A stretch of 64,000 nt of DNA, from the IMG/VR virus record IMGVR_UViG_3300034375_013346, positions 1 through 64,000 of that record; one strand, written 5' to 3'. A model generated the notes under the pieces. It worked only from the letters and a program-made list of their open reading frames with translations, was not told the DNA's origin and made no database searches. Origin of the DNA: a virus. Below are positions 2,623-36,658 of the stretch, in pieces. Both the position numbers and the translations under genes were made by a program. Position 1 is the first letter of the stretch; every line of letters begins with the position of its first letter.

Positions 2623-3411
2623 TTACCAGCCCGCTAGAGATGGGTAATACTTATCACCATCGACAAATGGGAATAGGTACGCATGTTCCCGAATTCTCAT
2701 TTCCATATTTTTTTCGCATCCTTTGTGGTCTGAGTGACTGAGATACTCTCTAGATACCATTGGCCAAATGGAATAGTTGTTTATCGGAACATCACAGCTT
2801 GTGATGAAATGATCTATATCCAATTTATCCCCCTCCCTCATGTTGAGATTGTCCTTTATCTTATCCAGAATAGTATTCCTGATAATTGAAAAATTAATCG
2901 TGGATGCCCTATTTAGGGGTTTTGCCAGATGTTCATTTATTACCCCCATTTCTCCAAAGAAATAATGGTTGCCTATCAAAATATCCCAATCCTGTGGAAG
3001 ACTAGCATATGAATCCCTTATTTTATCCATAGCCCCGGAAACCAAATAAGCATCATCCTCCATCACGACTATCGAATCCTGACAATCTTCTCCAAATGCT
3101 TTTTCCATGACATCGAGATAACTTCTAAAGATGGCCCAGGGAACGTCCGATAGATCTTCAACCGCATCAAATCTCTCGACCTCGAAATTGGAAAAGAGCT
3201 GCTTATTTAATGAATTGAATCTCTCCCATCTGTCGTGTCTCCTGGCCAAGTTTATAACATAGGCTTTTTTTGGGAATTGTACCTCGTTCTTCCCGCTCAA
3301 TTCAAATTTACTTCCGATATCTATTATCCTTGAGAGGTCTGATTCTTTGTTCAGCTCGCAGATCCTCCTTAAGTCACCCGGTCCGTAGTTAGAGGTTCTG
3401 GTGGGATCCAT
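2623..3411 (-). CDS. glycosyltransferase family 25-like
   Basis: YVINLARRHDRWERF, RFDAV and MEDDA motifs. Confidence 0.75.
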   Translation of the reverse strand: MDPTRTSNYGPGDLRRICELNKESDLSRIIDIGSKFELSGKNEVQFPKKAYVINLARRHDRWERFNSLNKQLFSNFEVERFDAVEDLSDVPWAIFRSYLDVMEKAFGEDCQDSIVVMEDDAYLVSGAMDKIRDSYASLPQDWDILIGNHYFFGEMGVINEHLAKPLNRASTINFSIIRNTILDKIKDNLNMREGDKLDIDHFITSCDVPINNYSIWPMVSREYLSHSDHKGCEKNMEMRIREHAYLFPFVDGDKYYPSLAGW

Positions 3412-20598: not shown

Positions 20599-20673
20599 TG
20601 GTAGCCCCGCCAGGAATCGAACCTGGATCTAAAATTTAGGAAATTCTTATTCTATCCGTTGAACTACGGGGCC
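20599..20673 (-). tRNA. tRNA-Arg(CCT)
   Basis: cloverleaf; anticodon loop TTCCTAA; GGTTCGATTCC T-arm; encoded CCA. Confidence 0.9.
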
Positions 20674-22258: not shown

Positions 22259-22705
22259 ATGACAAGTTTATATCGTAGTACATCCATTATTTTTTTGCTA
22301 TCAATTCTACACATAATCTCATATTCACAGACTTGCCAACAGCACATACTTTCAACAGTTCCAGCCACTGAATGGACCACTTGGCAATACGTTAGTTGTG
22401 AAACATCCGATACAGTCACCCAAAGTCTACCCTGCTGTGGATGGACATTACCTGTATGCGCCGTAATTGGAACTGTCGAGCTCATTGATGGGGACGGATT
22501 TAGTGCTCCACTAATTAATGAGGTTGGTGGTCCATGGGAATCCTGTAGTCAATATAACGAAAATGAAACTGACACCTGTCAGTGGGATCTGGATCAGGAT
22601 GGAAGGATAGCTGTTTCAGATCTGCTTATAATGCTAGCCAACGATAGCTATGGTGAGGGTGATTTGGAGGGTCTCCTAAATAACTTCTCAAATCAATGCG
22701 AATAA
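22259..22705 (+). CDS. secreted Cys-rich protein with dockerin/EF-hand-like C-terminus
   Basis: signal-peptide-like N-terminus; DLDQDGRIAVSDLL. Confidence 0.6.
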   Translation: MTSLYRSTSIIFLLSILHIISYSQTCQQHILSTVPATEWTTWQYVSCETSDTVTQSLPCCGWTLPVCAVIGTVELIDGDGFSAPLINEVGGPWESCSQYNENETDTCQWDLDQDGRIAVSDLLIMLANDSYGEGDLEGLLNNFSNQCE

Positions 22706-25700
22706 TCAGTCTTTTATCACTGCTGTTATTATTTCCTATTCACAGTTCTTTCTCGCAATGTGATGTTTTTATCGAACCAGGATCAGTTAATGTTATAGAC
22801 AATGGCTCTGGTGTAATGTTTGAGTTTGATGTTACAAACTCATCCTCTGGTGATTGGTACGGGGACGTCTTAAAAATGTACTGGTCTCTCAATTCGGGTG
22901 CCCCTATATGGAATATCGATTATAGTACTAACACAAATCAACCGCCAATAGCCCCAGGAGAAACTCGTACTTTAGAAACCCCCTGGTTCGATATTCCTAA
23001 TCTCCCTTCTTGGTTTCCTGAAGACCCAGGACCAGGAGGTACTTTGGATGACAACTGGATAGAAGCTTACGAATGGCCCTATTGGTCAGTAACCCCAGAT
23101 GGGTTTGATGGTACTTGGTCACAAGTTAACCTCAGACTAGGAAGTTGCGGATTAGCTGATGGTGCTTGGGTATACAACTCAGACGGTACACAATACTATG
23201 GTCCATTTAATTCTGATTGTCCTGATCTAAATGGAGACGCCTTTTGTGATTGTGATTTAGATTTTATAGGATTCGACCCAGTCACTCTGGATGTAAGTGT
23301 CGAGGTTATAAGCGACTGGAACTGTGGCACTACATTGAACGCTGGGATGAGTTCCGAAATGAGCTCCATTAATCACATACACTTCGGAATCCATGTCCCA
23401 GGATGGGATTATCCATGGGGATGCACAACCGGGATTAATCACCCGGGATGGTCATTTGCAGGATGGAGTAGCTTAGGAATAGAATCCTCTGAATTACATG
23501 CTGGTGACATCTTTAATGCTAACCTTCTAGATATTGGCGGAAGTGGTGATTGCTTTCAAGAGATTCTATCCAGTGATACCTTGACCGCTTGTCCTGAAAT
23601 TGTTATATGGCAAATAAATTATTCTAAAACCTTAAACGTATCGGATGGCGGATGGGCGGTAAACCCAAGCATCGGAAATAGTACACAGGAATATCCCGAC
23701 ATTTCCATAGGTCTAAACTCCCTATCTGCTTGCGATACACCTCCCCCATTGTATCCAGGTTGCATGGATCCTGAAGCAACTAACTACGATCCTACTGCAG
23801 GTTATGACGATAATACATGCGCATACGGTCCTGTTCTAGGATGTACAGATCCTGTGGCTTGCAATTACAATAGCTCAGCCAATTCAAACGATGGAAGTTG
23901 CGATTATTCTTGCATTGGATGTACGGATGAAAGCGCAAGTAATTATAATCCTGAAGCAGTATATGATAATAATTCTTGCGAATATCTCTTCCCAGACGCA
24001 GATCCCTCGGTAAACTTTAACCAAGTAATATGCAACGGGGAAGATCCGGAAAACTCATATAATATCTTTGTTTATAACTACGGTGAAGATACACTCTTCT
24101 ATTATTGCATAGAAATCCCAGAATTGGAATTTGATGAATGTTATAACGGATATGAAATGGGAAATCTATGGATTGAACCAGGGGCAGGACAATTCATGGG
24201 AACTTTTAATGTCCCAAGCAACCTATCCCAATTCACCGTTATAGTTTATGATGCAGATGGAGAACCAGTTGGCGACGGTGGGAATAACGTACAGGTGATT
24301 AATATAAGTCCAATATTAGTCAATCCTTGTCTACCCCTGATTGATCTAGGAATAGACACACTAACTTCACAACTTGGGGGTTGTAACGGCCAGCCTATTT
24401 ATTGGATACCCCAAGTCAACGTAATTAACTACGGGGAAGAAGACATAACCGAGTTCTGCACAACCTTCGATATCCTGAATGACGGAATCCCAATGGATAC
24501 TATTTGTCTCGATGGATTATCTTTATCCCCAGGAGATACGCTGGTCGTCGAATTCCCACAAAACAATTATGGAGCTGATCTTCCTGTAACAGTAACCACA
24601 AATATCATACATATAAATGGTGAAAATCCACCAAGTACAGCCGGCTATGATCAAGTTTACGATAACAACTATAGTGTAAATAACTTCCAGATGTGGTGTT
24701 ACGATTGTACAGATCCAGAGGCAAACAACTATAACGAATATGCTACTGATGATGACGGATCTTGCACTTACGATTTATTAGAACTGATCTATGTTGACCT
24801 CTACCCTATTAATGGATGTGACCTCACGGAAGGCGGATATTACATACCGGAAATTCTATTTGAAAATACAGGAAACGTAGAAATAACCGAGTTTTGCTCT
24901 ACCTACGACATTTACGGATCAACATACGAGGAGGAATTTTGTTGGACAGGAACCTTAAATCCGGGGGATCTTATTTACATACAGTTCCCTCCTGTTTTTG
25001 AGGATGGATTAGGTGCTGCCTATATACAAGTAAATGGAATAAATGGACAGATAAGCTTCACTGAGACAATCACTGGGGTTAACTATGCATCATATTCGGA
25101 TGACGAGTGCATATATGGATGTACGATAGTTGAGGCATGCAATTACGATCCTTTAGCCACAGTAAATGACGGTAGTTGTGATTTTGAAACCTGTGTAGGA
25201 TGTACCGACCCTCTAGCTACTAACTACAACCCAGATGCTTGGTTTGACGACGGATCTTGTGAATATGACATACTTGGTTGCACGGATCCGGCTGCATTAA
25301 ATTATGATCCTCTGGCTACTTTGGACGACGGAAGCTGCCAATACGTAATTTATCTAGGAGGATGCACAGACCCAGAAGCTATTAACTACAATGTTGCTGC
25401 AACATATGACGACGGAAGCTGCATATATGATCCATGTAGCGGAATACTAGGAGCAGTTTATTATGCACCCAATACATTCACTCCTAATAACGATGGTGTG
25501 AATGATGGATGGACCATAGTTACTGATCCTCAATGCTGGTTAAAGTGGCACGTACAGATCTACAACCGTTGGGGACAACTTATTTGGGAATCTTTCACTC
25601 CAGGAGAGGTTTGGCCAGGGTCTCAATTCGACGGAGGATATTACGTAGCTGATGGAGTTTATTTCTATCAGGTTATTGGCATCGGATACAACCCAGCTAA

Positions 25701-25740
25701 CACATTCAGAACCTCCGGGAATATAACAGTATTTAGATAA
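22696..25740 (+). CDS. large secreted/surface protein with Cys-rich repeats and T9SS type-B (gliding-motility, CHU_C) C-terminal domain
   Basis: signal peptide; 8 GCTDPxAxNYxxxAxxDDGSC repeats; C-terminal PNTFTPNNDGVND...IYNRWG...GVYFY...GNITVFR. Confidence 0.85.
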   Translation: MRIISLLSLLLLFPIHSSFSQCDVFIEPGSVNVIDNGSGVMFEFDVTNSSSGDWYGDVLKMYWSLNSGAPIWNIDYSTNTNQPPIAPGETRTLETPWFDIPNLPSWFPEDPGPGGTLDDNWIEAYEWPYWSVTPDGFDGTWSQVNLRLGSCGLADGAWVYNSDGTQYYGPFNSDCPDLNGDAFCDCDLDFIGFDPVTLDVSVEVISDWNCGTTLNAGMSSEMSSINHIHFGIHVPGWDYPWGCTTGINHPGWSFAGWSSLGIESSELHAGDIFNANLLDIGGSGDCFQEILSSDTLTACPEIVIWQINYSKTLNVSDGGWAVNPSIGNSTQEYPDISIGLNSLSACDTPPPLYPGCMDPEATNYDPTAGYDDNTCAYGPVLGCTDPVACNYNSSANSNDGSCDYSCIGCTDESASNYNPEAVYDNNSCEYLFPDADPSVNFNQVICNGEDPENSYNIFVYNYGEDTLFYYCIEIPELEFDECYNGYEMGNLWIEPGAGQFMGTFNVPSNLSQFTVIVYDADGEPVGDGGNNVQVINISPILVNPCLPLIDLGIDTLTSQLGGCNGQPIYWIPQVNVINYGEEDITEFCTTFDILNDGIPMDTICLDGLSLSPGDTLVVEFPQNNYGADLPVTVTTNIIHINGENPPSTAGYDQVYDNNYSVNNFQMWCYDCTDPEANNYNEYATDDDGSCTYDLLELIYVDLYPINGCDLTEGGYYIPEILFENTGNVEITEFCSTYDIYGSTYEEEFCWTGTLNPGDLIYIQFPPVFEDGLGAAYIQVNGINGQISFTETITGVNYASYSDDECIYGCTIVEACNYDPLATVNDGSCDFETCVGCTDPLATNYNPDAWFDDGSCEYDILGCTDPAALNYDPLATLDDGSCQYVIYLGGCTDPEAINYNVAATYDDGSCIYDPCSGILGAVYYAPNTFTPNNDGVNDGWTIVTDPQCWLKWHVQIYNRWGQLIWESFTPGEVWPGSQFDGGYYVADGVYFYQVIGIGYNPANTFRTSGNITVFR
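23758..25422 (+). repeat. eight dispersed ~21-aa coding repeats (GCTDPxAxNYxPxAxxDDGSC)
   Basis: visible in the translation as clusters of 3, 1 and 4. Confidence 0.85.
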
Positions 25741-27910: not shown

Positions 27911-27986
27911 AGTCGAAGGCAGGAATCGAACCTATCGCGTCACAACCAGTCTTAGCTGGTCTGCTCTACCACTGAGCTACTTCGAC
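27911..27986 (-). ncRNA. atypical tRNA-like gene (abnormal anticodon loop, bulged T-stem)
   Basis: perfect acceptor GTCGAAG/CTTCGAC and D-arm; anticodon arm GACCAG-CTAAGA-CTGGTT; T-stem GC(GAT)AGG/CCTGC. Confidence 0.7.
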
Positions 27987-28659: not shown

Positions 28660-28669
28660 ATTTGCTATG

Positions 28670-28743
28670 TGCTCCCTGTAGGGCTTGAACCTACGACCTA
28701 CCGATTATGAGTCGGGTGCTCTGACCAACTGAGCTAAGAGAGC
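28670..28743 (-). tRNA. tRNA with CAT anticodon (elongator Met or Ile2)
   Basis: loop CTCATAA; full cloverleaf; identity cannot be settled by eye. Confidence 0.85.
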
Positions 28744-28776: not shown

Positions 28777-28853
28777 TAGGCACGGCGGGGATTGAACCCA
28801 CATGTAACCATTTACTCTTTCTACAAGGTATAAGCTTGAGGAGATACGTGCCC
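28777..28853 (-). ncRNA. rearranged tRNA-like RNA (TAT anticodon arm placed before a D-loop-like hairpin)
   Basis: acceptor GGGCACG/CGTGCCT-A; CAAG-CTTATAC-CTTG; GTAA-ATGG-TTAC; T-arm GTGGG-TTCAATC-CCCGC. Confidence 0.7.
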
Positions 28854-28914: not shown

Positions 28915-28921
28915 TGTGAAG

Positions 28922-29003
28922 TACCGAGGGTCGGACTCGAACCGACACACCGTAAGGCGCTAGATCCTAAGTCTAGTGCGTCTACCAATTTCGCCACCCC
29001 GGC
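28922..29003 (-). tRNA. tRNA-Leu(TAG)
   Basis: CTAGA-CTTAGGA-TCTAG; variable arm. Confidence 0.93.
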
Positions 29004-29233: not shown

Positions 29234-29280
29234 TCCTTTATGAAAAAAAATACCTGAGGAAAAACCAGGAATTAGATTTG

Positions 29281-29721
29281 TGGAGCTGGGGGGATTCGAA
29301 CCCCCGTCCAGCTAGGCAAATCCTAAGAACATCGTTCACAGGCTTAGTTGATTGTACGACATCAACAAACTTTTCCCAATCCGGATTTTTGAACTGAGGC
29401 GATCGGATTCCTCAGCGGAAGACGCTAACAGCGATCTTAAGGGTATTGGACTGTGGTCCTCAGGGTTACTGATCGACTTCCTATTGTGGGTACTACTAAC
29501 CCTTATTCCCCGTTTGCAACTTTCTGTTCCTAGGCAGTTACCGCCCGGTGCTTAGGCTACAAGTGCAACTTCAGCTTCCTCAACAGGAGCTAGTCCTGCA
29601 AGGATATAAAATGGGTTTTCGCCATTTAAAAAATACATAGGTTATTATAGAGTTTCCAATGCTAACTCTGCCTGCATCAATTCAAAGAACTTCGGCCTCC
29701 TGTCGATTCCATTTCAGCCCC
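29281..29721 (-). ncRNA. ssrA: tmRNA; tag (A)GENPFYILAGLAPVEEAEVALVA*
   Basis: 5' GGGGCTGAAATGGAATCGAC; 3' GACGGGGGTTCGAATCCCCCCAGCTCCA with G3:U70; tag ORF 29623-29552 after TTAAAT. Confidence 0.92.
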
Positions 29722-29856: not shown

Positions 29857-30507
29857 TTAGAACTCTGGATATGGGTCTAAATCAGTGTGTTCAATCCAGC
29901 CAGTTACTATGTATTTATATTGGTCCCCGCCTGGAGGATTTCCCCTATGCAGATGAGTCCAAAACGCGGGTGCTAATAGAAGATCCCCAGTTCCCGGTTG
30001 AACCTTTTGCCCGGAATATTTAAATTCAGTTGCTCCCCCGTTTACATCATTGAGATAGAATATAAAGAACAGCTGTCTCTTTGCTGAATCCCCACCCTCG
30101 TTCTCGAAGTGCCATGCATAGTATCCCTCGTCCCCAATGTATCTCTGAGCCTGTATACTTGGGAATCCCCCTCCTGTCACAGATAGCATCTGGTGTGCGT
30201 GTCGAACCAGAATATTTCTTTGCGGCACCATTCCTTGATTAAATATAAAGGGATAATCTTCCAGATAATCTACCACTCTGTGAAGAAGAATCTCAGTGAG
30301 ATAGTCGTATATCTTCCTCCACTCCGGATCATTCAGATGGTGGTTTATCATCAGATCAGTGGAAGCTTTACTTTCCTTGTTAACCCCTCCGGATGTTATT
30401 CCCTCGAATTTGTTCGATGACATTTCGAATAGATCTATGATCCTTTTGCAAATTCCAGACGGAAGCTCTGCTGGGAATATCTTGGTTAGGTATGTTTCTT
30501 CCTCCAT
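29857..30507 (-). CDS. 2OG-Fe(II) oxygenase
   Basis: WHFE, FYLNDVNGGATEF, HLHRG, KYIVTGW. Confidence 0.85.
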   Translation of the reverse strand: MEEETYLTKIFPAELPSGICKRIIDLFEMSSNKFEGITSGGVNKESKASTDLMINHHLNDPEWRKIYDYLTEILLHRVVDYLEDYPFIFNQGMVPQRNILVRHAHQMLSVTGGGFPSIQAQRYIGDEGYYAWHFENEGGDSAKRQLFFIFYLNDVNGGATEFKYSGQKVQPGTGDLLLAPAFWTHLHRGNPPGGDQYKYIVTGWIEHTDLDPYPEF

Positions 30508-31013: not shown

Positions 31014-31601
31014 CTAGTGATTATTTATACATCCTGCACATTCAGTTATCGAAAGCCTTTCACCGCTCGTTACCGCAGTTACCTCGTGGGGATCCGTGCC
31101 TCTATACAAGATGAATGTTCCTTTACTTCTCGGGGCAACTTCTCCGTTTATGATCAAATCACCCCCCGAATATTCTCTCGGGTCACTCAATTGGATGGTA
31201 ATCGTCATATCCCTCTTGACACCATTATGAATTCCATCATCGATATGTAAGGTATGGTATCCTCCGGTTGGATATTTGGTAAAGTAATGCGGGCCTTCAA
31301 TACCGAACTTATAATCTGCCTTCATTGAAAAAACCCGCTCTATTTTTTCTGATAAGAATCCAATAGCATCTACCGGTATACCAACAATTTCAACCCGTCT
31401 GGGAATGCTATCTATAACTGTTTTCCTTGTGGATCTTACATCCCACATATTTGAATTCATGATTTCCGGAGAGGTGTCAATACCCTCCCAATATTTCATC
31501 AGGATGTTTATCTCCTCGTCTGAAATAACACCCTCGGCATACGAAAAGTTATCCCCCGTTTTTAGTATGAGCTCTCCCTGTCCCATGTTGTATATAATCA
31601 C
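31014..31601 (-). CDS. 2OG-Fe(II) oxygenase (PKHD-type hydroxylase-like)
   Basis: HIDD, IQLSDPREYSGGDL, HEVTAVTSGERLS. Confidence 0.85.
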   Translation of the reverse strand: MIIYNMGQGELILKTGDNFSYAEGVISDEEINILMKYWEGIDTSPEIMNSNMWDVRSTRKTVIDSIPRRVEIVGIPVDAIGFLSEKIERVFSMKADYKFGIEGPHYFTKYPTGGYHTLHIDDGIHNGVKRDMTITIQLSDPREYSGGDLIINGEVAPRSKGTFILYRGTDPHEVTAVTSGERLSITECAGCINNH

Positions 31602-35102: not shown

Positions 35103-36551
35103 TTATATCTTAATTTGTTTATATCTCTCAGAATCGATGGTTTGATCCATAATTTTTTCTGGTGTCATCCCATCACAATTGAGGATACTCCTCATGATTG
35201 CTGGGGAAAATCCAGAAACCAAAGCTGTACCAGCCTCGTCAAAGCTAACTGGTATGTTTTTTCCACTGGCATTAAGGTTCCAATACACTATGGATGGAGC
35301 CTCATATCCTGCTTCTTCATAGGATTTTTTAATCATCTCCTGTGCAGTAGGGTTCCAAATATTCTTTCCCTGCTCTCCCCAACCGAATACCTCTTCCCTT
35401 TTGTATACAGCTTGATCAAACTCCATGTCGGATAAAATTAGAAGTGTTGATGGCATCTCCTCATCAGGAACTGAATTTTTTACCGCCTGGTTGAGTATCA
35501 ATTCAAATACCGCCTGGAGATCGGTGTTCATTCCCCAATCCGAGCGGCTCAATTGTCTAAATCTATCATTGAGGTCTCCGCTTAAAACCTGGAGATCAGG
35601 ATTAGCAGAAAAAGTTATGAAAGAGTCCTTAAAACTTCCTTCATTCCTCTCGGAGATATAAAGACCCAAAGAAATTGCCACGTCCATGCAGGTAAGATTC
35701 TTATTATTACCAGCGCTACATTGCATAGATCCAGAGACGTCTACCACGGGCAGAATCATTCCGTTTGCACCCTCCATATAATTAGGCAAGGATTTCCACT
35801 GCTGATTAGCAACTTCGGAATCTCCAAATCCCAGAGATTTAGTTATATCGTAAGGATATACGGCACCTGCGTTTATTTTTGCGGTCCCGTTTTTAAGAGC
35901 CTCCCTATATTTAGCATATTGCTCGGGTGCATTTTTAGTAAATGCTTTCTGATATCTAGCAGAGGCCAAAGAGGGGAGTTTACTAAAGTCAATGGAATCC
36001 CAATCGCCCGAGCACATCTTACTTTCAACTACGTCCGTAAGAGAAACCAACAGCTTTCTGTATTCCTTGGGAGAGAGCTTCATAAAATTTCTAAGCTTCG
36101 CAGCTACTTTACCCTTTCGTGGCATCCATTTAGCACAAAGCCCGTCCTTGTTATCCAATGCTTCGGTGATTAGACTGAAAGCATCTTTTTCAACTCTGGT
36201 CCCCTCGAAAACTAGCACATCGTCCCACCTTCCGTAGAAAGGTATAAGTGAAAGATTACTCTTAACGATTAGATCTTGGTGTTCAGCAAGGTATATGATA
36301 ATATCCCTGAATATCTGTCTCTCTCCTGCTCCACCTCTCACATCCCTCGCCCAGAAAAGGATCTTCATTGCCCTTTCCGGATCCTCGTTGTATGCAAGGG
36401 AAAACTTCTGGATTAAGACTTCTTTCTCCGACCCCCTCATAGCTCCGATGTTAAAAAATAGATCAACACAGAAGCTAAGGGATGAAGAGTTAGTTGCCAT
36501 ACCGTTTTCGGTAATCGAATCTTTCGTTCTCAAGGCGTTTACTAGTTTCAT
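35103..36551 (-). CDS. Ro60/TROVE-like + VWA protein (DUF2828 type)
   Basis: TENG, ARDVRGGAGER, YGRWDD, AKWMPR helical part; VWA MIDAS DVSGSM, TFS, WGMNTD, SDMEFD, VSGFS. Confidence 0.88.
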   Translation of the reverse strand: MKLVNALRTKDSITENGMATNSSSLSFCVDLFFNIGAMRGSEKEVLIQKFSLAYNEDPERAMKILFWARDVRGGAGERQIFRDIIIYLAEHQDLIVKSNLSLIPFYGRWDDVLVFEGTRVEKDAFSLITEALDNKDGLCAKWMPRKGKVAAKLRNFMKLSPKEYRKLLVSLTDVVESKMCSGDWDSIDFSKLPSLASARYQKAFTKNAPEQYAKYREALKNGTAKINAGAVYPYDITKSLGFGDSEVANQQWKSLPNYMEGANGMILPVVDVSGSMQCSAGNNKNLTCMDVAISLGLYISERNEGSFKDSFITFSANPDLQVLSGDLNDRFRQLSRSDWGMNTDLQAVFELILNQAVKNSVPDEEMPSTLLILSDMEFDQAVYKREEVFGWGEQGKNIWNPTAQEMIKKSYEEAGYEAPSIVYWNLNASGKNIPVSFDEAGTALVSGFSPAIMRSILNCDGMTPEKIMDQTIDSERYKQIKI

Positions 36552-36658
36552 AGCTTCCGTTTTAATCAATTCCTTATATGGAAAAAATATCTTTTGTTTC
36601 TTTTTTAATTGGGAGCAAATTTAGTTATCCAAATCGTACTAAAAAAATTTTATTCCAT

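Follow-up and report, generated by a model that had tools for sequence, protein, structure and literature searches.

To our knowledge, the connectivity of the cloverleaf is regarded as universal among tRNAs outside organelles. In mitochondria, mammalian tRNA-Ser(AGY) and nematode tRNA-Ser lack a D-arm, and a review of non-canonical tRNAs lists D-arm loss for mitochondria only (Krahn et al. 2020, PMC7609411). In Cyanidioschyzon merolae, circularly permuted tRNA genes carry the 3' half before the 5' half, and a circular intermediate restores a normal tRNA (PMC3728597, PMC4033280). The allo-tRNAs have an 8/4 or 9/3 branch with a normal D-arm and a long variable arm, with UAU among their commonest anticodons (Mukai et al. 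2017, PMC5389517), and Mycoplasma mobile has a tRNA-Ile with the rare UAU anticodon (Taniguchi et al. 2013, PMC3575796).

Here we analyse a 77-nt gene from a phage tRNA array that sequence comparison identifies as a tRNA with a different core topology, and as a member of a large family rather than a one-off. With canonical elongator tRNA-Ile (RF00005) it has in common the 7-bp acceptor stem, the 5-bp T stem with a UUCRA loop, U33/NAU/A37 and A73, equivalents of U8, A14, R15-Y48 and G18 G19, and placement in a tRNA array; its UAU anticodon would read AUA without lysidine. Unlike canonical tRNA-Ile, it lacks the D hairpin that would stand between positions 9 and 26: the putative D-stem is formed by long-range pairing around the anticodon arm, with the D-loop after it, so that the junction is three-way instead of four-way, and the gene falls below the Rfam cut-off and receives no ARAGORN call. 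Mitochondrial D-armless tRNAs share the missing D hairpin in its usual place and the short connector after position 9, but they have lost the D elements and elbow contacts and are organellar molecules with adapted factors, whereas the rewired tRNA keeps a D-stem equivalent, the GG and a canonical T-loop and is carried by phages and bacteria. The C. merolae genes likewise depart from the segment order of the cloverleaf; here, however, the ends are normal, with the acceptor strands terminal, and the internal rearrangement is expected to be present in the mature RNA. Allo-tRNAs are also non-canonical tRNAs of phage and bacterial tRNA clusters. Compared with these and with class II tRNAs, the branch is 7/5, the D-arm is rewired and the candidate variable hairpin lacks covariation. 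No description of the rewired architecture was found in the searchable full-text literature, which mostly does not extend to subscription journals.

A tRNA-like gene without a D hairpin in a phage tRNA array

The window analysed covers positions 1 to 64,000 of IMG/VR virus record IMGVR_UViG_3300034375_013346, which is 114.6 kb long and has a CheckV completeness estimate of 42%. Its GC content is about 39%, and its minus strand holds nearly all genes. The rewired gene occupies 28777-28853 on the minus strand, within the main tRNA array of the phage (26526-29163, minus strand), which has seven other tRNA genes; array content at 26.5-29.2 kb comprises Leu-UAA, one odd tRNA, Gly-UCC, Asn-GUU, two CAU tRNAs, Leu-UAG and Ser-UGA. 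Its neighbours are tRNA-Met(CAU) at 28669-28743, 33 nt away, and tRNA-Leu(UAG) at 28921-29003, 67 nt away; a tRNA-Arg(CCU) lies outside the main array at 20599-20673. By ARAGORN calls, the other tRNAs of the phage mostly serve codons that end in A (UUA, CUA, GGA, UCA). Among Ile codons of the window, ATA is the commonest (49%, 37 per 1000), and no canonical tRNA-Ile was found in the source record, which is incomplete. Megablast of the tRNA region against cultured phages returned matches to ordinary tRNA-Met genes only.

The gene is read from 28853 to 28777, so that RNA position p lies at window coordinate 28854 - p. The acceptor stem pairs RNA 1-7 (GGGCACG, 28847-28853) with RNA 70-76 (CGUGCCU), which together with the discriminator A77 occupies 28777-28784; its first pair, 1-76, is G.U in this copy. 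CCA is not encoded, the 3' flank being CCU. After U8, A9 and U10 (28844-28846) comes CUC (RNA 11-13, 28841-28843), then C14, then the anticodon arm UCAAG-CUUAUAC-CUUGU (RNA 15-31, 28823-28839), with the UAU anticodon at 28830-28832 and a U15.U31 mismatch that is conserved in the family. An AGAAA linker (RNA 32-36, 28818-28822) takes the place of the variable loop and joins the anticodon stem to the returning strand GAG (RNA 37-39, 28815-28817), the partner of CUC. The putative D-loop equivalent, UAAAUGGUUACAU (RNA 40-52, 28802-28814), leads directly into the T-arm GUGGG-UUCAAUC-CCCGC (RNA 53-69, 28785-28801).

An earlier note, made from the sequence of this stretch alone, had described a tRNA-like gene with a 7-bp acceptor stem, a canonical T-arm, a CUUAUAC loop and no D hairpin after position 9, all of which we confirm on the minus strand. 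The canonical features extend to the 5-bp T stem with its UUCRA loop and the 7-nt anticodon loop with U33 and R37. The 4-5 nt between position 9 and the anticodon stem leave no room for a D hairpin, and none appears in the single-sequence minimum free energy fold, whose energy is itself unremarkable (z = -1.72). The ordinary cloverleaf, which the note had named as an outcome that would overturn it, was rejected as a fold for this gene, the complement needed for a D-stem after position 9 being absent.

Standard gene finders do miss the gene, as had been anticipated. ARAGORN made no call at this position of the window, and its calls overlap just 2 of 149 rewired family members. The Rfam tRNA model RF00005 covers the whole gene but reaches only 26.9 bits against a cut-off of 29, and to do so it drops the D-arm (4 nt against 15 in the model) and opens an 18-nt insertion in the variable region. 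A family covariance model trained on 126 rewired relatives scores the window copy at 92.7 bits (E = 3.7e-25) over model positions 1-77, including helix 11-13/37-39 and pair 42-52, and gives the canonical tRNAs of the same record at most 28 bits.

Covariation supports a rearranged core

Relatives were collected with two independent pattern scans. The first, of IMG/VR, required CTTATAC, a gap of 24-36 nt and a T-loop, fixing the anticodon loop and T-loop only; among the matches listed, about 34 had the rewired layout. The second combined a D-loop-like segment with a T-loop, left the anticodon free and covered viral contigs and bacterial genomes, yielding 38 stretches in bacterial genomes besides the viral contig matches. 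Among the matches listed, 126 distinct sequences of 76-78 nt entered the alignment. Several of its invariant columns were imposed by the search pattern, and related phages are not independent samples.

Standard pairs fill 93.7% of the cells of the proposed structure, compared with 60.4% in shuffles and less than 50% with slid partners. All seven acceptor pairs covary (98.5% paired across the 126 relatives), as do four pairs of the anticodon stem (16-30 to 19-27), three of the T stem and two of the three in helix 11-13/37-39. In the last of these, CUC/GAG in the window copy, pairing reaches 99.7% and double changes are frequent: pair 12-38 is CG in 54 sequences, GC in 38, UA in 30, AU in 3 and UG in 1, and pair 13-37 is CG in 84, GC in 38, AU in 2 and UA in 1. 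RNAalifold predicts the helix independently. In Streptomyces phage Jay2Jay it reads ACC/GGU, with A-U at pair 11-39, so the third pair has also changed on both sides. The homologue search, in which a lack of compensatory changes would have told against the earlier note, thus favoured it: the covarying acceptor, anticodon and T stems and helix 11-13/37-39 support its proposal that the tRNA is rearranged yet retains the components of the D/T elbow.

Outside the helices, U8 and A9 are invariant, and neither search pattern imposed them. The core family has the linker NGAAA; its GAAA was imposed by the second pattern, having already been invariant in the first, unconstrained set. In the same way, A41, G45 G46 and the T-loop UUCRA show no variation among the 26 sequences of the first set and were imposed by the second pattern. 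The discriminator is A in 126 of 126 sequences; the base after it is C in 123 of 125, and the full CCA is templated in only 15. Divergent members keep the layout with other linkers, one (L007) having an 8-nt linker, and in three (L008, L054 and L116) the D-loop equivalent is 18-20 nt long, starts with UAG and ends with AC.

One further pair covaries within the segment that follows the long-range helix. R42-Y52, for which the search pattern permitted R and Y independently, is AU in 80 sequences, GC in 42, GU in 1 and another combination in 3, and both the A-U and the G-C state occur within all three anticodon classes. On a tree made without the two columns, nine independent contrasts on supported branches point in the same direction (sign test, median P = 0.008). 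As judged from the alignment, this covariation is the signature of the canonical 15-48 pair.

The rest of the correspondence with a canonical tRNA is inferred. We infer that A41 is A14, A42 is R15, G45 G46 are G18 G19, and U52 (Y52), directly 5' of the T stem, is Y48. Strand continuity would make G37-G39 the canonical 10-12, followed by U40, A41 and R42 as 13, 14 and 15, and C11-C13 the canonical 23-25, running into C14 (26) and the anticodon stem (27 on). U10 lies opposite U40, and the two may be the equivalent of the canonical 13-22 pair, a possibility that depends on this inferred numbering. Equivalents of the core nucleotides U8, A14, R15-Y48 and G18 G19 are all present in changed order; that they make the canonical contacts is an inference. 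The best reading of the alignment is that canonical 10-21, the 5' D-stem strand and the D-loop, would no longer lie between 9 and 22 but would have shifted to a place between 47 and 48. In yeast tRNA-Phe, the triples 9-12-23, 45-10-25 and 8-14-21 and the 15-48 pair bring the nucleotides concerned close together. The new junctions 9 to 22, 47 to 10 and 21 to 48 would each join spatial neighbours of that structure, an inference from established structural knowledge without a three-dimensional model.

Proposed function and alternative readings

That the window gene is a selected, structured RNA of tRNA type is close to certain. We consider it probable that it is a working tRNA-Ile for AUA, with expression, aminoacylation and decoding all inferred. 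In such a molecule the acceptor stem (1-7/70-76) would stack on the T-arm (53-69). The 3-bp helix 11-13/37-39 would act as the D-stem, enclosing the anticodon arm (15-31) and stacking coaxially on it, with AGAAA (32-36) bridging helix and arm. The single-stranded segment 40-52 would serve as the D-loop, with A41 meeting U8, R42 pairing with Y52 in the manner of 15-48, and G45 G46 meeting the T-loop. We envisage that the RNA would be cut from the transcript of the phage tRNA array and given CCA by a host enzyme, that host IleRS would charge it through the NAU anticodon, A37 and A73, and that the charged elongator would read AUA, the commonest Ile codon of the phage, without TilS or lysidine. 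The L-shaped fold, processing, charging and decoding all remain inferred.

The identity elements of Escherichia coli IleRS are the NAU anticodon, A37 and A73. The window gene has them all (UAU, A37, A73), and in its relatives A35, A37 and A73 are invariant (126 of 126) and U36 is present in 125, the exception (L144) having UAC; U33 is invariant as well. Among the matches listed, the family has the anticodons UAU (about 100), GAU (about 15), CAU (about 14) and UAC (1). A scan for the core signature with a middle anticodon base other than A gave four matches, none with a tRNA-like acceptor or T-arm. The rewired genes sit in tRNA arrays, a median of 42 nt from the nearest tRNA on the same strand. 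A UAU anticodon reading AUA without lysidine fits a phage in which ATA makes up about half of the Ile codons, although decoding is inferred. In carrier phages, AUA usage did not differ among UAU, GAU and CAU types and was high in all (median 33% of Ile codons).

The start of the acceptor stem differs between anticodon types. G1 is present in 13 and C4 in 12 of the 14 CAU-type members, and only 14 of 99 UAU-type members start with G1. The bias suggests a class-specific constraint on the acceptor stem, as would be expected if TilS acts on the CAU type and reads its acceptor stem, which is an inference. The UAU type begins with C1, U1 or A1 in 85 of 99 members; such a non-G start is unusual among bacterial elongator tRNAs and counts against a working tRNA.

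The gene could instead encode a mimic or decoy that does not decode, showing its Ile-type loop to an anticodon nuclease, TilS, IleRS or a defence sensor, or serving some other tRNA-dependent process outside translation. The unusual first base pairs of the UAU type would suit such a role, as would a core unlike that of every tRNA known to function on bacterial ribosomes. So would the coexistence in Jay2Jay of the rewired GAU gene with a canonical tRNA of the same anticodon: that phage has canonical genes for both tRNA-Ile(GAU) and tRNA-Ile(UAU), which means that supply does not always rest on the rewired gene alone. We nevertheless think a mimic unlikely. A full Ile set of UAU, GAU and CAU, with Arg UCU and UCG in a sister subfamily, resembles a set of decoders and not a single bait, and the family has kept A73, templated C74, U33, A37 and an acceptor/T branch of 12 bp. 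The window phage also uses AUA heavily. In arrays of at least five tRNAs a canonical tRNA-Ile(GAU) stands alongside 0 of 14 rewired GAU genes against 11 of 26 rewired UAU genes (Fisher exact test, P = 0.0036), an exclusion of the canonical tRNA with the same anticodon that counts against a mimic.

If the gene is the Ile decoder that we favour, its rewiring may be adaptive and not neutral. It could allow escape from host nucleases or quality control directed at tRNAs, or it could alter decoding, with an unmodified or differently modified U34 faithful on AUA (and on AGA in the Arg subfamily), which would make it a second working core topology for rare split-box codons. The structural premise is that both strands are continuous at the hinge between D-stem and anticodon stem, with the D-loop re-threaded. 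We offer this only tentatively and regard it as doubtful.

A different fold has also to be weighed. The earlier note had read the region after position 9 as one continuous stem followed by a GG-containing hairpin, GUAA/UUAC. If that hairpin were a true variable arm, the RNA would be a D-armless tRNA with a loose elbow, as in the mitochondrial D-armless tRNAs, and CUC/GAG would be an extension of the anticodon stem. Four base pairs are indeed possible in the window copy, pairs 40-50 (UA 98, UG 26) and 42-48 (AU 83, GU 43) stay pairable across the family, and Infernal places the GG segment in the variable region. The hairpin found no covariation support on either 26 or 126 sequences: none of its four pairs shows a compensatory change, 41-49 fails in 55 of 126, and RNAalifold does not predict it. 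It would also need G39, which cannot serve both GUAA/UUAC and CUC/GAG, and covariation favours CUC/GAG only; R42, similarly, covaries with Y52 and not with 48. Conservation of the GG and of a canonical T-loop also sets the family apart from the mitochondrial D-armless tRNAs. Of the earlier description, then, the helix enclosing the anticodon arm stands and the hairpin sharing G39 does not, and we hold a D-armless tRNA with such a variable arm to be very unlikely. Because pair 41-49 so often fails and no hairpin pair is compensated, the GG segment is better read, from the sequences available, as an unpaired D-loop equivalent that would be closed by the 15-48-like pair R42-Y52.

A decayed pseudogene or recombination scar, such as a remnant at an integration or HNH-insertion site, would account for the failure of both finders and for the ordinary fold energy of the lone sequence, but covariation refutes it in practice: the same layout, identical to the nucleotide, recurs in over 126 distinct sequences whose stems differ widely yet are compensated throughout, it occurs in phages of Actinobacteria, Bacteroidota and Firmicutes, and the family model scores the window copy at 92.7 bits. 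Hardly more tenable is the idea that the gene is permuted or split and that its RNA is rearranged into an ordinary cloverleaf, as in C. merolae: the segment order does correspond to a permutation of canonical 10-47, yet the acceptor ends already stand at the gene termini, the relocated piece is internal and would have to be excised and re-inserted, no bulge-helix-bulge motifs or flanking repeats were seen, and the rearranged order itself covaries as a fold. We know of no bacterial or phage enzymology for excising and re-inserting an internal tRNA piece.

Distribution and sister families

Viral carriers of the rewired tRNA amount to at least hundreds of contigs. The cultured carriers are about 40 Streptomyces phages of the genus Samistivirus, and the gene is unannotated in the Samistivirus records listed, except in phage EGole (L257:296-372), where this GAU-type gene is labelled tRNA-Leu. 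In Jay2Jay the GAU-type gene lies at about 75237-75313 of NC_029098.1 (L256:1496-1572), between nucleotidyltransferase and FtsK-like genes. A common origin with the phage's own canonical tRNA-Ile(GAU) was considered and set aside, as no similarity was obvious by eye. Two further records, cr130_1 and bajarodcaudo virus 1, from crAss-like or gut phages, have the gene too, again without annotation.

Among bacteria, single copies inside tRNA arrays occur in isolates of Chryseolinea, Chryseosolibacter, Ohtaekwangia and Pedobacter and in metagenome-assembled genomes of several phyla. We rejected the idea of a core chromosomal tRNA of Bacteroidota: the gene was found in only 1 of 81 and 2 of 41 sampled family genomes, and the copies lie in tRNA arrays. 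These searches scored a fraction of first-look candidates, so the remaining genomes count as 'not found in those searched' and not as 'absent'. Rarity within families and location in tRNA arrays mark the bacterial copies as accessory, and they are probably borne by phages or islands.

A looser descriptor recovered an Arg(UCG) gene with the rewired layout. Scanning on the D-loop motif brought out a sister subfamily of 49 distinct sequences (Arg-UCU 29, Ile-UAU 17, Arg-UCG 1), all with the covarying long-range helix, an 8-nt linker CRUUAAYN and the D-loop equivalent UAAUUGGWGUAU; its loci include L135 at about 2864-2942 (plus strand), L007:6599-6677 and L262-L331. Arg anticodons were seen only in this 8-nt-linker subfamily.

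A second non-canonical tRNA(UAU) family also occurs on phage contigs (for example, L001:9781-9873, plus strand), with about 54 distinct sequences among the matches listed, and is carried in the tRNA cluster of a relative of the window phage. It has a normal 4-bp D-arm, a 7/5 branch and a long variable arm with a covarying stem (32 distinct stems). The 7-nt loop of the variable arm (CAGAUUA, CAGAUAA, UAGAUGA or CUGAUAA) looks like the anticodon loop of an Ile(GAU) tRNA; 53 of 54 sequences have GAT in the variable region, and 43 of 54 template CCA.

The rewired family is widespread, in phages of several bacterial phyla as well as in tRNA arrays of bacteria, and its covariation is evidence for a chain order unlike that of the cloverleaf, with all nucleotides of the tertiary core kept. 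If the family does decode, the ordinary ribosomes, synthetases, RNase P and EF-Tu of bacteria could work with an L-shape reached through a different topology. The tRNA repertoires of phages would then be systematically under-annotated, for AUA and AGA especially, and the family would offer a natural scaffold for studying effects of the core and hinge on decoding and, possibly, for tRNA engineering.

Other features of the window

The odd tRNA of the array, at 27911-27986 (minus strand), scores 39.3 bits with Rfam, and its anticodon loop, flanked by ACCAG and CUGGU, seems to be 6 nt long (CUAAGA); ARAGORN labels it tRNA-??? with a 2-nt anticodon. Directly upstream of the array lies a phage-borne tmRNA (29278-29721, minus strand; Rfam RF00023, 81.5 bits, full length) for which ARAGORN makes no call. 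On the minority strand, an ORF of 1014 amino acids (22696-25740, plus strand) ends in a CHU_C type IX secretion sorting domain, a sequence match that indicates a host among the Bacteroidota and a T9SS cargo gene carried by the phage. A protein of 488 amino acids with DUF2828 and DUF7788 (35103-36569, minus strand), encoded some 6 kb away from the tRNA array, matches PHROG 850, 'RNA-binding protein' (E = 3.6e-156). Two 2OG-Fe(II) oxygenase paralogues, at 29857-30507 and 31014-31601 (both minus strand), sit at the upstream end of the tmRNA/tRNA region.
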